NCBI GenBank assembly: GCA_016839585.1
Contig: JAEOTZ010000060.1
Span: 1 to 33,537, forward strand
DNA: 33,537 nucleotides
Reading direction: 5' to 3'
Source: Promethearchaeota archaeon
GTDB taxonomy: Archaea > Asgardarchaeota > Lokiarchaeia > Sigyniarchaeales > SOKP01
Shown here piece after piece: positions 24,303 to 30,408 of the stretch. The notes below the pieces were generated by a model, which worked only from the letters and a program-made list of their open reading frames with translations, was not told the DNA's origin and searched no databases. Position 1 is the stretch's first letter; each line of letters starts with the position of its first letter. The position numbers and the translations under genes are program-made.

Positions 24303-24566
24303 TTATGTATTTTCCTTTCTCATACACTGCATTTTCTTGGAAATTCTTATCATTTCATCAAAAATCCTATCATTTTCTTCTGAATCATTTGTTTTCAATA
24401 ATCTTTCATTAAGATCTTTTATTTTCAGTGTTAAATCAATAAATTCTTGTGGAGGTTCCATTTGATAGAAATATTCATTATCTCCTTTCTCATCTAATTC
24501 TATGTATACCCATTTTCTTTCTTCTTGAGACCAATTCCATCGATTAGGTGTGAGTTTTCTAGGCAT
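24303..24566 (-). CDS. Small hypothetical protein
   Basis: 87-aa ATG ORF filling the gap; aromatic beta-like N-half and helical C-half. Confidence 0.7.
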   Translation of the reverse strand: MPRKLTPNRWNWSQEERKWVYIELDEKGDNEYFYQMEPPQEFIDLTLKIKDLNERLLKTNDSEENDRIFDEMIRISKKMQCMRKENT

Positions 24567-24731: not shown

Positions 24732-25934
24732 TCATTCTGAAAATTCTTTTAAATTTTTTTCAGCAAGTTCTCTAACATCCACATCGGTGTCTTTTGAGAG
24801 TTTTTCTAACAAATTCTTTAATTCCTCTCCCTTTTCTTCGAATTTACCAATTGCTTTAATTAAATTATATCTAATTAACCAATCTTTATCATGAATTAAC
24901 TTAAGGAATGCATCATATACTTTTTTATCTTTTATTTCACTTAAAATTTCTATTACACTTCTTTTAATCTCATTATTTTGATTCTTTAAATCCATGATAA
25001 GGAATTCTATTACTTTATCTTTATTTTTTTCATCTAAAAGTTTGTACATATTCATGAAGAGAGAAATTTGATATGATTTAGGAAAACTAGAAGGGACTTT
25101 TAACTGCTGATAAGATTGAATAGAGATACTCGAAGATTTTTTTTCCTTTAACTCTAATAATGATTGACTTAATTTCTCATTTTCCTTTTGAAATTTTAAT
25201 AATTCATTTTTGATCTCTTCAATTTCTTTTGTACTATCAGCTATTTCTTTTTCTTTTGCCTGTAAATAATTGATCTTAGCTTTAAATTCTTCTATCTCGG
25301 CAATCAGAGTCTCGATTTCTTTATTTGCTGAATCAATTTTTTCTGATTGCACATTTTCAGTCGCTTCTTGGATTTTAGCTTTTAATGCTTCGATTTCAAC
25401 ACGTAATAATCCATTTTCTTCCATTAATTGAAAATTCAATTTTTTAGCCTCAATTAATTCTTGATTTTCAACTACTTGATGATCATAAGCTTGCTTTTTC
25501 TCAATTTGTTCTTTTAGAGATTGAATTTGAATTCTATTTTGTTCATTTTCTTCAGTTAACTGAACAATAATTTTTTTAGTATTAATTAATTCTTCATTTA
25601 CTTCAGATGGTGAATTCAGCTCTTTATAATTTTCTAAATGGTTTGTTAGTTCTTGAATTTGCTGATTTAGGGAGTTGATATCTTTATATCTTTTTACTAA
25701 ATCTTGTTTTTGAGTCGCGATAGTGTCTTTTAACTCTTTAATATTCTCAGGTGTTTTTTCTTGAAATTCAAAAAGTTTATCTTTTTGATCTTCAATTAAT
25801 AATTTTTGTTCTTTTATTGTAAAATTTAACTTATTAATTTCTTCCTTTAAACCATCAATTGTTTGCTCGAATTCTGCTCGAACTTTGTTTCCTTCTTCAA
25901 CAGTATCAATTAAATTCTTTATATCTTTAGTCAT
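24732..25934 (-). CDS. Long coiled-coil protein with C-terminal HEAT repeats
   Basis: About 265 aa of E/K/Q/L/I heptads with an internal repeat; C-terminal DLKNQNNEIKR, LIHDKDWLIRY and LSKDTDVDVRE HEAT motifs. Confidence 0.85.
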   Translation of the reverse strand: MTKDIKNLIDTVEEGNKVRAEFEQTIDGLKEEINKLNFTIKEQKLLIEDQKDKLFEFQEKTPENIKELKDTIATQKQDLVKRYKDINSLNQQIQELTNHLENYKELNSPSEVNEELINTKKIIVQLTEENEQNRIQIQSLKEQIEKKQAYDHQVVENQELIEAKKLNFQLMEENGLLRVEIEALKAKIQEATENVQSEKIDSANKEIETLIAEIEEFKAKINYLQAKEKEIADSTKEIEEIKNELLKFQKENEKLSQSLLELKEKKSSSISIQSYQQLKVPSSFPKSYQISLFMNMYKLLDEKNKDKVIEFLIMDLKNQNNEIKRSVIEILSEIKDKKVYDAFLKLIHDKDWLIRYNLIKAIGKFEEKGEELKNLLEKLSKDTDVDVRELAEKNLKEFSE

Positions 25935-26232
25935 AGTTTTGACAGCAATTATAAATAATTAATAATAGTTTTATATCAATTTATATATAATGAATTGAAT
26001 TCTAATAACTCTTTACATAATTCAATAAATAAACTTTGAATATTTATTTCTTAATTCCTCTTTTTTATATTAATTTCATTAAGAATATTAATTATATTAA
26101 TTTCCTTAAGAGATAATTCAATTTTCCAAAAGTGTCTTTTTTTGAACTACTCATATAGAAATCTTTAAAATAGATATTAAAATATATTTCAATTGATATA
26201 ATTAGATGTAAAAAACGGGAGGATTTTATATA

Positions 26233-26382
26233 ATGACATATGAGGATTATGAAGGAGTAAATAAAGATAAAGAATATGAAGATGATGATGATGAGGACTA
26301 CGATGATGAATTTAATGATGGTGATTGGGATTATGATGATGACGATGATTTGGAAGACGATGATGACGAGGAGGATTGGTGA
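26233..26382 (+). CDS. 49-aa ultra-acidic peptide MTYEDYEGVNKDKEYEDDDDEDYDDEFNDGDWDYDDDDDLEDDDDEEDW
   Basis: ATG preceded by GGGAGGA (26217-23); synonymous GAT/GAC/GAA/GAG variation in a single frame; G-rich island in AT-rich intergenic DNA. Absent from the ORF track. Confidence 0.8.
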   Translation: MTYEDYEGVNKDKEYEDDDDEDYDDEFNDGDWDYDDDDDLEDDDDEEDW

Positions 26383-26481
26383 ATCTAATATATATAATAC
26401 TTATAGTTTTTCAAAATAGAGTATAAGAACATTCCAGGTTAAAAAATAAAAAAATAATTAGAATCTTTTTACTCCATTATG

Positions 26482-26958
26482 TTATACAATCCTAATTTCG
26501 ATAATTTTATCTCCTTGTTGAATTGAATTTACAACTGCTTGATCCTTAGAACTTTTTGCTTCTCCAAATATCGTATGCTTATTATTAAGATGTGGTGTTG
26601 GAACATGTGTAATAAAGAATTGAGAGCCATTGGTATTTGGTCCAGCATTAGCCATTGCCAAAATCCCTGGTTTATCAAATTTTCTCCCACTCTGAAACTC
26701 ATCTCTAAAAGGATATGAAATACTTTGACCTTTGAATGGAAAGAATGTAATTCCTTTATCTTTTGGACCACCAAAACCTTTTCCCAGGGGATCACCCCCT
26801 TGAATCATGAAATCAGCAATAACTCTATGAAAAATTATTCCATTATAGAAGCCCTGTTGTGCTAGATATAAAAAGCTGGCTACTGTTATAGGAGCTCCAT
26901 CATCGAAAAGTCTTAGATTAATATTACCTTTATTTGTAATAATAATGATTTCAGTCAA
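26482..26958 (-). CDS. Cyclophilin-type peptidyl-prolyl cis-trans isomerase
   Basis: FHRVIADFMIQGGDP, LAMANAGPNTNGSQFFIT and HTIFG; start moved to TTG 26958 after a GGTGA SD (track start 27009). Confidence 0.95.
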   Translation of the reverse strand: MTEIIIITNKGNINLRLFDDGAPITVASFLYLAQQGFYNGIIFHRVIADFMIQGGDPLGKGFGGPKDKGITFFPFKGQSISYPFRDEFQSGRKFDKPGILAMANAGPNTNGSQFFITHVPTPHLNNKHTIFGEAKSSKDQAVVNSIQQGDKIIEIRIV

Positions 26959-27103
26959 TGATTTTTCACCTATTTTTGTAATAATATACTCTATGAAAAG
27001 TTCTAACATTTTTTAACCTTTTTACTCAATGAAAAGATTAAAAATTATTGTAATAATACACTTTTATAACACTTAAAATTTTAAATTACTGCACATAAAA
27101 AAA

Positions 27104-29272
27104 ATGACGATTAAGCGTAATGCTTCCTTTTTTTTCAATCCAAAATCAATTGCAATTATTGGTGCTAGCAGTACACCTGGAAAAGTGGGATATAATGTAT
27201 TAAAAAATATAATTGATTCTAGCTATTCTGGAAAGATTTTTCCCATAAATCCAAAAGCTGGTGAGATTCTTAACTATAAGGCTTTTAAAAGTGTACTAAA
27301 GGTTCCAGATGAAATTGATATAGCTATTTTTGTAATTCCTGGAAAGCATGTAAATTCAATTGCAGAAGAGTGCGGTAAAAAAAATATTAAGGGTTTAGTT
27401 GTAATCTCAGCTGGTTTTAAAGAAATTGGTGGAGAAGGTATATTACGTGAAAAAAAGCTTATTGAAATTGCTAAAAAATATAATATGAGAATAATAGGTC
27501 CAAATTGCCTAGGATTTATTGGAATCAATTATAATGGGTCATTCGCAACTGAAACTCCTAAAAAAGGACATATTGCTATGATTTCCCAGTCTGGAGCAAT
27601 GTTAACCGGGATGATGGATTATTCCATGGAACAGGCGTTTGGTTTTTCATGTAATATTAGCTTAGGGAATAAGGCTGATTGCTCCGAGGTCGATTTCATT
27701 GAATATTTAGCAGATGATGAGGATACTAAAGTGATTCTTTGTTATTTAGAGAGTATAGAAAATGGAGAAAGATTTTTAGAAATTCTTCCAAAAGCAACAA
27801 GAAAAAAGCCAATAGTGATATTAAAAGCGGGAGTTAGTGAAGCAGGTGCTAGAGCAGCCTCGAGTCATACCGGGGCATTAGCAGGATCTGATATAGCATA
27901 TGATTTAGCATTCGAAAAATGTGGAGTAATTAGAGCAAATTCGATTGGAGACCTTTTTGATTTTGGTGAAGCCTTTCTTTATCAACCAATACCAGAAAAA
28001 AATTCCTTTGCTATTATTACAAATGCTGGGGGGCCCGGCATAACAGGGGTCGATGCTTTTGAACGTGAAGGCTTAAAATTAGCCCAATTTTCAGAACCCA
28101 TATTACATAAATTAAGAGATAATTTACCCCCAGAAGCAGCCATTTTTAATCCAGTAGATATCATTGGAGATGCGTCACCAGAAAGATATCGATTTGCTAT
28201 TGAATCTATTTTTGGTATAAACAACAAAAATGTTGAAGGAATATATGAAGATTCAATTACTACATATGGTGCATTAATAATTATGTCTCCACAGGCTCAG
28301 ACAAAACCAATTGAAGTTGCTAAGTTAATTTATGATATCTCTTCGAATCATTTATCAACCAAGCCGATATTATGCGCTATGATAGGCGAAAAATCTATTA
28401 AAGAGGCAAGAAAATATTTAAAACAACATCACATCCCTTGTTTTCCCTTTCCAGAAAGAGCTGCTCACTCCTTAAAAACATTAGTAAGATATAAAGACTT
28501 TTTAGACTCAAAACCTTTGGAAAAATTAGAAATTTCTGAATTTAAAGTTAATAAGGATAAAGTTAAAGAAATCTTTGATGCTGTCAGGAAAGATGAGCGA
28601 ACCGTACTTTTAAGCCATGAAACGAGCGAAATTTTTGAATGTTATGGGATTAAATCTCCAAAATCAAGATTGGCAAGGACTCCAAGAGAGGCCATGAAAT
28701 TACAAAAAGAAATTGGGAAATCGGTTTTGAAGATTGTCAGTCCACAGATAATTCATAAAACTGATGTAGGAGGGATTGTTCTAGGTGTTGAATCTGAGAT
28801 AGATGCCTTTGAAGCTTTTATCCAAATTGTGGATAGTGCTAAAAAATTTGGCCCCCAAATAGCTAAAATTTATGGAGTTGAAGTGCAAGAGATGATTGAC
28901 TTTAAAAAAGAAAAAAAGTTTATTGAACTTATTATAGGTATGTCTCGTGACCCGCAATTTGGCCCAATGTTGATGATTGGTTCTGGGGGAATTTACGCTA
29001 ATTTTCTAAGAGATGTTTCATTCGCGTTAGCATATAAATTTACAGAACAGGATGCAAAAAACACACTTCAAAAAACTAAAATATACAGTTTGTTACAAGG
29101 AGTTAGAGGAGAACCAGCTTCCGATATTGATTCAATTATAGAAGTATTGTTAAGATTATCACAGCTAGTAAATGATTTTAAAGATATTGTTGAGTTAGAT
29201 ATTAATCCATTATTATCCTTTATTAAAGGATATAGTGCAGTAGATATTAAAATTACTATAAGCCGAGGATAA
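27104..29272 (+). CDS. acd: ADP-forming acetate/acyl-CoA ligase, fused alpha-beta
   Basis: AIIGAS CoA-binding, GPNCLG, SQSG, SHTGALAG phospho-His, NAGG, NPVD, HKTDVGG and DINP ATP-grasp motifs. Confidence 0.9.
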   Translation: MTIKRNASFFFNPKSIAIIGASSTPGKVGYNVLKNIIDSSYSGKIFPINPKAGEILNYKAFKSVLKVPDEIDIAIFVIPGKHVNSIAEECGKKNIKGLVVISAGFKEIGGEGILREKKLIEIAKKYNMRIIGPNCLGFIGINYNGSFATETPKKGHIAMISQSGAMLTGMMDYSMEQAFGFSCNISLGNKADCSEVDFIEYLADDEDTKVILCYLESIENGERFLEILPKATRKKPIVILKAGVSEAGARAASSHTGALAGSDIAYDLAFEKCGVIRANSIGDLFDFGEAFLYQPIPEKNSFAIITNAGGPGITGVDAFEREGLKLAQFSEPILHKLRDNLPPEAAIFNPVDIIGDASPERYRFAIESIFGINNKNVEGIYEDSITTYGALIIMSPQAQTKPIEVAKLIYDISSNHLSTKPILCAMIGEKSIKEARKYLKQHHIPCFPFPERAAHSLKTLVRYKDFLDSKPLEKLEISEFKVNKDKVKEIFDAVRKDERTVLLSHETSEIFECYGIKSPKSRLARTPREAMKLQKEIGKSVLKIVSPQIIHKTDVGGIVLGVESEIDAFEAFIQIVDSAKKFGPQIAKIYGVEVQEMIDFKKEKKFIELIIGMSRDPQFGPMLMIGSGGIYANFLRDVSFALAYKFTEQDAKNTLQKTKIYSLLQGVRGEPASDIDSIIEVLLRLSQLVNDFKDIVELDINPLLSFIKGYSAVDIKITISRG

Positions 29273-29340: not shown

Positions 29341-30408
29341 ATGATGGTTAAAACAATTTATCTATGCTCGTTAAGGGAAAGAGTAGGAAAGAGTTTAATT
29401 TCGATCGGAATTATGCAAAAATTACAAAATGAAGGCAAGAAGGTTGCCTATTTCAAGCCTATAGGAATTCCTAAAGGAGCGTTCACTAATAAAGCAGATC
29501 GTGATGTCGGATTTATACAAAATACTATTTTTAAGACGACACTTCCATATGACATAATATCTCCTGTTTCTATTCCGGATTGTTATTATGTAGATCTTAT
29601 AGATGTTAAAAGAAAGGAGGAGAATTTAGGAACGATTAAAAATGCTTACGATGAAATCGCTAAAAATTTCGAATATGTCATTATTGAAGGTTCTCCAAGC
29701 ATTAAAAGATATACACGTGTAGGCTTAGATGATGTGACTATAGCGAAATCAATAGGTATTAATGATCTAGTTTTCATAGAGACTCAATCTTCTGATAAAT
29801 GTATTGATAATATATTTTTCTCTAAGAATTATTTTGAATTTAGAAAGATCAAAATAAAAGGAATTATCTTTAATAAGATTGATTATGACTATAAAGCAAG
29901 GATTGAAGAATTAGAAGAAAATCATATTAAAAGATATGGGATCCCAATACTAGGAATTATTGAAAAAAGCATTGAGTTGTTTGCACCTCGAGTAATCGAA
30001 ATTCAAGAAGGAATTGGTGGAGAATTAATTAACGAAATAGCATCTGCGAGTTTAAACAATAGGGTTGAAACAACAATAATTGGTGCGATGAATGCTCAAG
30101 CTGCTTTGAAATATTTAAGACAAATAAAAGCAGCAGCAGTTATTACCGGTGGAGATCGTACAGATTTAGCCTTAGCCGCGTTAAATGAAGATGTTAAATG
30201 TTTAATTTTAACCGGGTTTATAAAACCTGATATCAAGGTTATTCATACAGCGAATGAAAAAGGAATTCCAATAATACTTAGTCCATCTGATACATACACA
30301 ACACTTAGAAATATGGATAGAGTAAAGCCTGGAATTCAAGAAGATGAGATAGATTTAGCTTTAAAATTAATAGAAAATGTTATTGATTGGGATTTGTTAT
30401 TAAATTAG
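29341..30408 (+). CDS. Phosphotransacetylase N-terminal-like protein (BioD-like P-loop plus DRTGG domain)
   Basis: VGKS, YFKPIG, IIEG and ITGGDRTD; no Pta catalytic domain; co-oriented with acd. Confidence 0.88.
   Translation: MMVKTIYLCSLRERVGKSLISIGIMQKLQNEGKKVAYFKPIGIPKGAFTNKADRDVGFIQNTIFKTTLPYDIISPVSIPDCYYVDLIDVKRKEENLGTIKNAYDEIAKNFEYVIIEGSPSIKRYTRVGLDDVTIAKSIGINDLVFIETQSSDKCIDNIFFSKNYFEFRKIKIKGIIFNKIDYDYKARIEELEENHIKRYGIPILGIIEKSIELFAPRVIEIQEGIGGELINEIASASLNNRVETTIIGAMNAQAALKYLRQIKAAAVITGGDRTDLALAALNEDVKCLILTGFIKPDIKVIHTANEKGIPIILSPSDTYTTLRNMDRVKPGIQEDEIDLALKLIENVIDWDLLLN

Follow-up and report, generated by a model that had tools for sequence, protein, structure and literature searches.

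We examined a stretch of DNA of 33,537 nucleotides (nt) from a Promethearchaeota archaeon (hereafter the window), which is contig C49 (30% GC) of a 3.45-Mb assembly that is 99% complete. The subject of this study is a very small open reading frame (ORF) on the forward strand at 26233..26382, running from ATG to TGA with the stop codon included, the product of which, MTYEDYEGVNKDKEYEDDDDEDYDDEFNDGDWDYDDDDDLEDDDDEEDW, is a microprotein of 49 amino acids. Divergent from it is a gene for a 400-amino-acid coiled-coil/HEAT protein (24732..25934, reverse strand; C-terminal HEAT_2, Pfam E = 1.1e-11), and convergent with it is a gene for a cyclophilin-type peptidyl-prolyl isomerase (26482..27009, reverse strand; Pfam Pro_isomerase, E = 2e-42); these two genes were used as the syntenic anchors. 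A Shine-Dalgarno (SD) sequence, GGGAGGA, is located at 26217..26223 on the forward strand, 9 nt upstream of the start codon. Among the relatives described below, an SD 5-mer (part of AGGAGGTGA) was present at -17..-4 of 22 of 40 family starts, compared with 2.7% of random genomic ATGs. Farther upstream, approximately 63-70 nt from the ATG, a candidate archaeal TATA box, CTTTAAAA, was read from the sequence (26163..26170, forward strand). The block that contains it, ATAGAAA.CTTTAAAA.AGATATTAAAATA, varies hardly or not at all among the four closest species (alignment A1) and is plausible as a promoter element of this kind. A T5 run on the forward strand, 25 nt past the stop codon (26407..26411), was also read from the sequence and may be an archaeal oligo-T terminator. 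No hairpin terminator was found 3' of the ORF by a promoter/terminator scan, which was of the bacterial type and uninformative for an archaeon.

The 49-amino-acid product contains 22 Asp and 9 Glu (31/49, 63%) together with 5 Tyr, 2 Trp, and 1 Phe, and its net charge is approximately -30. DGDWDY is present inside the sequence, and the C-terminal end is DDDDEEDW, followed by TGA. As in most of its relatives, no Cys is present. When the 10,453 ATG-started ORFs of 25-120 amino acids in the genome were ranked by acidity, this ORF was the first, and only three ORFs in the whole genome had a 20-amino-acid segment with at least 15 Asp/Glu residues. The acidity of the ORF is thus far beyond chance for its host genome. 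The Asp/Glu codons are mixed (GAT 18, GAC 4, GAA 5, and GAG 4), and the sole repeat signal from TRF in the tract was a degenerate 3-nt periodicity (63% matches), which is not a clean microsatellite. A first-pass annotation of the window had described this frame, its 31 acidic residues, DGDWDY, the terminal EEDW, and the GGGAGGA sequence, and all of them were read again in the sequence. It had also called the frame unannotated. Indeed, the exact peptide was absent from a collection of 15 billion proteins, and a profile of the family, searched against 1.84 billion proteins, matched only four representatives, one of which is a "hypothetical protein" at NCBI from a Lokiarchaeota metagenome-assembled genome (MAG).

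Homologues were sought through synteny and motif searches in place of a single-sequence protein search, because the latter, when applied to relatives, gave only weak matches owing to the low complexity of the sequence. A homologous-protein search from the orthologue in genome G057 returned zero matches, the query itself included. A search for related loci with the family alignment (A4, described below) gave 171 pattern matches, of which none was confirmed by tblastn, presumably owing to low-complexity masking; the tblastn-based search was replaced by a direct scan of the DNA for the pattern. The HEAT gene has orthologues in 52 of the 54 genomes of genus g1, and in most g1 genomes the spacer between the HEAT and cyclophilin genes is 80-200 bp with no ORF inside. 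In G057 and G056 (neighbour identity, 80% and 79%, respectively), the spacer is approximately 520 bp and contains an ORF for a 63-amino-acid orthologue that begins with MTYED, contains FNDGDWDY, and finishes with EDW. The insertions and deletions between the window ORF and these orthologues are in-frame, in multiples of three. In the closest relative, G043, the neighbour of which is 88% identical, a deletion took the upstream region, the SD sequence, the start codon, and approximately 30 codons. What is left there is a start-less remnant, NDGDWDYDDDDDW-stop (L006:2721-3057; G043:C54, about 25650-25990), which reads as a recent loss of the gene.

A profile built from the three orthologues was then applied, and loci of genera g22 and g13 were fetched by synteny through the HEAT gene, whether or not the peptide was present. 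Of the 37 loci examined for the sister genus g22, 29 had a small acidic ORF at the syntenic site, and all acidic ORFs at the loci fetched in this way contained N-D-G-[EDGK]-W. One of the 37 loci, L073 (G057:C17:8280-9360), is on a contig that is g22-like but was placed in the bin of the g1 genome G057. This second HEAT/acidic-ORF locus of G057 is nearly identical to that of the g22 genome G131 (L066), and is probably bin contamination or a sign of a mixed MAG. In genus g13, the same arrangement recurs, with the HEAT gene divergent and the cyclophilin gene convergent, so that the microprotein gene has the same site in three genera. The synteny with HEAT and cyclophilin genes, proposed in the first-pass annotation as a check in related genomes, therefore recurs beyond the window. 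In one g22 subclade, the HEAT gene is kept and the microprotein gene is absent. Tandem duplicates approximately 290 bp apart were observed at L063, L064, and L068 (G111, G110, and G123). The second tandem copy in two genomes has Ile in place of the start Met, and may have a non-ATG start or be in decay.

Further small acidic members were found in genera g14, g15, g16, and g23, and relocated variants were found within g1, namely, a 32-amino-acid form and, in four species, a 57-amino-acid form that has a basic leader. In the 57-amino-acid variant (L002:1468-1641 on the forward strand, L083, L086, and L095, from G012, G001, G004, and G069), the leader reads MEKKDLNKSKKK..., the core is EEYNDGNWYDEEEDD, and the end, KYHSHD, is rich in His; in G012, the variant adjoins genes for a small GTPase and a thioredoxin-like protein. 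Basic leaders are present as PKKRK in the g15 forms and as KSKKK in the G012-type form. Altogether, the family comprises approximately 45 related ORFs of 32-75 amino acids in at least seven genera of one Promethearchaeia (Lokiarchaeia) family. The gene evolves quickly, by expansion and contraction in whole codons (GAT/GAA), tandem duplication, relocation, and loss.

The taxonomic spread was examined by motif scans. The DNA pattern for [YF]NDG[DENK]W gave 81 matches in 154 genomes of the order, compared with 6 for a reversed control. Matches to YNDGKW were located inside unrelated folded proteins (a protein of approximately 150 amino acids and an aminotransferase-like protein) and were discarded. 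When a stricter DNA pattern was scanned over one genome per GTDB species, all of the archaeal small acidic ORFs with the motif were on low-GC contigs. The titles of these contigs were Promethearchaeota/Promethearchaeia, "uncultured archaeon", Hermodarchaeota, Hodarchaeota, and one Nanopelagicaceae (L127). The last three titles look like mislabelling, because the contigs agree with loci already obtained from the Lokiarchaeial family described above (for example, L127 corresponds to G130:C156). Outside the archaea, a single small acidic ORF in the scanned species had the motif, and it was bacterial: L163:1634-1837 (reverse strand), from a Fimbriimonadales MAG of 61% GC, encodes 62 amino acids that are acidic and aromatic-rich, with EYNDGEWEYY inside and DSDW at the end. 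The other bacterial matches had the motif within large GH2-like, ABC-ATPase, and other proteins, and were regarded as chance or unrelated. On the basis of these scans, the family appears to be previously undescribed and to be found only in the one Lokiarchaeial family.

Subsequently, conservation within the family was examined. In the alignment of 37 sequences (A4), only M1 and the N, D, G, and W of the core were invariant. The members are laid out as an N-terminal M-x-[ND]-E-[ED]-L, repeats of (D/E)DDW(D/E)D, the invariant [YF]-N-D-G-[DE]-W-[DE], and a variable tail; on average, 56% of the residues of 40 members are Asp/Glu, 14% are Trp/Tyr/Phe, and 5% are Lys/Arg. In the window, the core corresponds to F-N-D-G-D-W-D (residues 27-33; codons at 26311..26331, forward strand). 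In the core N, D, G, and W codons of 40 sequences, positions 1 and 2 were fixed and position 3 was variable (AAT/AAC, 30/10; GAT/GAC, 31/9; GGA/T/C/G, 19/12/6/3). The ratio of nonsynonymous to synonymous substitution rates (dN/dS, Nei-Gojobori) was 0.08-0.61 in 17 close pairs, and 0.10-0.39 among the window ORF and its two orthologues. This agrees with the first-pass annotation, in which the mixed codons had been taken to reflect selection at the protein level rather than a microsatellite. We consider that the ORF is very probably a real protein-coding gene.

The ends of the proteins showed a different pattern. The last residue of 40 members was D in 13, Y in 12, F in 8, W in 3, and others in 4, so that 23 of the 40 have an aromatic end. 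The terminal E-D-W of the window (26371..26379, forward strand) is confined to the three closest species. In the nearest g22 clade, the end is DWEDY, DWEDF, or DWGDF, and other members end with ..DDY, ..EDF, or ..EED. Short forms end directly past the core (...YNDGEWDEED), whereas long forms extend 15-35 residues beyond the core Trp and end with Y, F, or D. The window form has lost an upstream DWEDY element that its orthologues and g22 retain. Conservation of the terminal Trp, which had been offered as a test of the first interpretation, was accordingly not observed; the conserved feature of the family is the internal YNDGEW core and not the terminal Trp.

Expression support for the ORF is weak. 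In a sediment metatranscriptome, one contig of 237 nt with one mismatch covers 26328-26564. This unstranded contig takes in the final 55 nt of the microprotein ORF together with the spacer and the 3' end of the cyclophilin gene. The metatranscriptome contained 8% of the sampled words, and the other metatranscriptome cover on the GAT-rich tract was low-identity sequence of other organisms.

The structure and possible known relatives of the microprotein were then considered. AlphaFold2 with the 37-sequence alignment gave no secondary structure, with a mean predicted local distance difference test (pLDDT) score of 62 and a predicted template-modelling (pTM) score of 0.15, and the microprotein is thus predicted to be intrinsically disordered. 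To judge from its residues, Y-N-D-G-E-W resembles a tight turn at Asn-Asp-Gly with an aromatic side chain on each side. The Pfam search of 37 members (E <= 10) gave no meaningful match, with DSS1_SEM1, WH2, and EF-hand types all unmatched, and the family profile gave zero matches to PDB chains at E <= 10. Look-alikes in the ESM Atlas were "highly acidic protein" clusters with scores of 0.78-0.81, which were too weak and were not used. A LIR/AIM-like W-x-x-[ILV] (WDEI/WDEV) is found in one g22 clade only and hence is not a feature of the family. The HbYX proteasome-activator motif was also set aside, since Tyr in the family is terminal and not penultimate. LysW/ArgW carriers have an N-terminal four-Cys zinc ribbon, a C-terminal EDWGE tail, and an adjoining gene for the ATP-grasp ligase LysX/ArgX. 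The microprotein was not assigned to them: it has no Cys, its end is not EDWGE, and its neighbours are HEAT, cyclophilin, and ADP-forming acetyl-CoA synthetase (ACD) genes, with no LysX-type ligase.

A second hyper-acidic Trp-containing microprotein of 44 amino acids was observed in the same genome, at G000:C3:72173-72307 on the reverse strand (L035:2674-2808, reverse strand). It consists of a basic leader followed by DEEEWDEDEDEDEDEDEDWEEYDEEY, has (D/E)nW repeats and the end ..WEEYDEEY, and is without the YNDGEW core. Its homologues, of 40-55 amino acids, are present in 12 or more genomes from the same archaeal family and share a KKK leader, (D/E)nW repeats, and ends of the type ..WEDY.. or ..DDY. 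Both families have Asp/Glu runs with Trp, and some YNDGEW members also have a basic leader; a common origin of the two is possible. As for the remaining neighbourhood of the window ORF, the fused ACD gene is at 27104-29272 (forward strand) and is followed by a gene for a stand-alone BioD-like plus DRTGG (Pta N-terminal-like) protein at 29341-30408 (forward strand). An 87-amino-acid ORF without a Pfam match lies immediately 3' of the HEAT gene on the same strand (24303-24566, reverse strand), and may be co-transcribed with it.

What, then, might the microprotein do? We tentatively favour, at somewhat less than even confidence, the interpretation that it is a polyanionic binder or chaperone of basic proteins that mimics nucleic acid and uses the YNDGEW turn, along with further aromatic anchors, for docking. 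A polyanionic chaperone had been the other possibility offered in the first-pass annotation, and a function of this class remains the most plausible. Beyond the existence of the gene, its conservation, the selection on it, and its predicted disorder, we infer binding and partners by analogy and from three properties of the peptide: its composition, its disorder, and its one sharply conserved aromatic motif. In this mechanism, the Asp/Glu chain would mimic the phosphate backbone, and the aromatic residues would mimic bases or serve as anchors. The target of the peptide would be a basic surface, probably one that binds nucleic acid, on one or more partner proteins; there the peptide would compete, shield, or chaperone, and the YNDGEW turn would be the knob that gives specific docking. 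DSS1/Sem1, prothymosin-alpha, and the acidic, aromatic-ended tails of SSB and T7 gp2.5 act in this manner. The genome contains five histone-fold genes, none of which is encoded near the microprotein gene, and histone-fold proteins are candidate basic partners or clients.

Several points weigh against this binder or chaperone function. No basic protein adjoins the gene (the isoelectric point (pI) is 5.1 for the HEAT protein and 8.8 for the cyclophilin). The genomic context varies between genera, and therefore guilt by association yields no consistent partner. The presence of the gene is patchy: it has been lost or moved, as seen in the G043 remnant, in one g22 subclade, and in most of g1, and thus its function is accessory and non-essential. 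The RNA support is one unstranded contig from a library that may contain DNA. In addition, the invariant N-D-G-x-W with its acidic flanks could equally be a cation-binding loop.

This last point leads to the alternative that the peptide binds or buffers metal ions (Ca2+, Mg2+, or transition metals), with D-x-x-N-D-G-x-W-D...D forming a loop like that of EF-hand or DxDxDG proteins and the poly-Asp/Glu chain acting as a low-affinity, high-capacity cation sink comparable to calsequestrin-type tails. When Gly is placed at loop position 6, positions 1 (D/E), 5 (D), 6 (G), 8 (hydrophobic, W), 9 (D/E), and 12 (D/E) fit in most members of the alignment, and the high Asp/Glu content of the family (56%) is also as expected of a cation sink. 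However, acidic residues at positions 1, 5, 9, and 12 are uninformative, because the protein is more than half Asp/Glu. Furthermore, an invariant aromatic residue (Y/F) occupies loop position 3, where a ligand of the D/N/S type is the rule, flanking helices were not predicted by AlphaFold2, and EF-hand, dockerin, Excalibur, or similar Pfam families were unmatched in the 37 members. We therefore regard metal binding as unlikely, although it is the best placed of the alternatives.

It may also be supposed that the microprotein is a dedicated partner or regulator of the divergent coiled-coil/HEAT protein, lying in the concave face of the solenoid and expressed from a shared bidirectional promoter region. 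The head-to-head arrangement is conserved in three genera (a g1 subclade, g22, and g13), as would be expected of such a pair. However, the peptide gene is missing from the majority of g1 species and from one g22 subclade, all of which retain the HEAT gene, and it is in unrelated contexts in g14, g15, g16, and the relocated g1 variants. Moreover, the HEAT protein is itself acidic to neutral, with a pI of 5.1 overall and 6.6 for residues 271-400. A complex prediction with HEAT residues 271-400 and the peptide gave a score of 0.00, which counts neither way. A dedicated HEAT partner is accordingly rather improbable.

A broader proposal is that the YNDGEW microproteins are carriers of an acidic-aromatic short linear motif born in Asgard archaea, free-standing forerunners or analogues of the acidic-Trp docking modules of eukaryotes such as DSS1/Sem1, the WASP A motif, and the DEF/Y anchors of histone chaperones. 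The peptide would then engage a eukaryote-like partner in Lokiarchaeia, such as an actin-related protein, a histone, or an RPA-like OB fold. If true, disordered, charge-driven regulation was already operating in the archaeal relatives of eukaryotes. At present, we consider this proposal a long shot.

The frame might instead be the by-product of a low-complexity, slippage-prone tract rich in GAT/GAA, with the real feature, if any, being antisense or an RNA. The degenerate 3-nt periodicity found by TRF is in line with this, as are the antisense frames, all of which are open across the tract and form ORFs of 100-135 amino acids in some relatives, and weak sub-threshold matches to C/D-box small RNAs in Rfam. 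However, the antisense frames have no conserved start, and the Rfam matches scored 15-20 bits against gathering thresholds of 39-50 and arise because of ATGATGA strings. In the sense direction, by contrast, the ATG, the SD sequence, the stop codon, and a non-repetitive N-terminal motif are conserved, the core varies in third positions only, and dN/dS is well below 1. A non-coding origin is thus very improbable.

Finally, the first-pass annotation had suggested an Arp2/3-binding A motif, in which an acidic stretch with a near-terminal Trp docks an actin-related protein and regulates actin assembly, as in WASP, WAVE, and Arpin, in which this motif follows WH2 and connector (amphipathic helix) elements within a larger protein. 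The likeness is the acidic run with Trp near the C-terminus (EEDW in the window, ..GEWDEED in short forms), and the short members end in ...DDYNDGEWDEED, superficially like the acidic-Trp-acidic ends of A motifs; the genome also encodes four actin-family proteins. This interpretation is nonetheless unsupported and the least likely of all, and it fails the annotation's own test, since the terminal Trp proved not to be conserved. Trp is within about 3 residues of the C-terminus in the window peptide and its two closest orthologues only, many long forms run on well past the core Trp, the microprotein is stand-alone with no WH2 or connector helix (Pfam, 37 members; AlphaFold2), profiles of ARPC2, ARPC3, and ARPC4 gave zero matches in the 99%-complete genome in searches that had no positive control, and the family, unlike actin genes, is confined to one Lokiarchaeial family and often lost.

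The family is near-absent from protein databases though clearly under purifying selection in dozens of Lokiarchaeial species, and it illustrates how archaeal annotation systematically misses small disordered proteins. It is also a tractable example of the birth and turnover of polyanionic disordered regulators as codon repeats expand and genes are duplicated, moved, or lost. A peptide of 45-65 amino acids with one invariant six-residue motif is a synthesizable probe for basic or eukaryote-like partners in Asgard archaea. If the partner were a histone, an OB-fold protein, or an actin-related protein, the result would bear on the origin of charge-driven regulation in eukaryotes; if the peptide were a cation buffer or a generic "shield", it would be a modest, lineage-specific curiosity.

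With the binder or chaperone function in mind, we compared the microprotein with known acidic proteins. DSS1/Sem1 (PF05160) is a eukaryotic adaptor of 70-90 amino acids that is acidic and disordered and mimics single-stranded DNA; its partners are pairs of PCI domains (in the proteasome lid and TREX-2) or the OB folds of BRCA2/RPA. Like it, the microprotein is small, stand-alone, strongly acidic, and predicted to be disordered, with conserved Trp/Phe/Tyr within Asp/Glu runs, and a [DE]-x-W-D-[DE] pattern is common to both. Unlike it, the YNDGEW family lacks the C-terminal helix of DSS1, has its own core, and is found in one Lokiarchaeial family only. Membership is not supported, since PF05160 was unmatched both in the 37 members (E <= 10) and in the whole genome (zero matches at E <= 1), and the family profile found nothing among the PDB chains, which we take to include DSS1/Sem1 chains; the likeness is functional only. 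By analogy, a mode of action common to both, that is, wrapping basic or OB-fold surfaces by nucleic-acid mimicry, is plausible.

Acidic tails with aromatic ends are also known from single-stranded-DNA-binding proteins, such as the tail of E. coli SSB (...DDDIPF) and that of phage T7 gp2.5, which ends in Phe. Such tails are mimics of single-stranded DNA and handles for protein docking. The microprotein resembles them in its Asp/Glu run with an aromatic end, Y, F, or W being the last residue in more than half of the family (23/40). Those tails, however, are appended to an OB-fold domain, whereas the microprotein has no folded domain and its invariant element is internal. Prothymosin-alpha and the acidic motifs of histone chaperones, with their DEF/Y-type anchors, are polyanionic chains that bind very basic chromatin proteins. 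They have in common with the microprotein a polyanionic disordered chain with aromatic anchors, but have no sequence relationship to it. Taken together, the kind of molecule, a small disordered polyanion with aromatic anchors, is familiar, and the YNDGEW family itself is undescribed.

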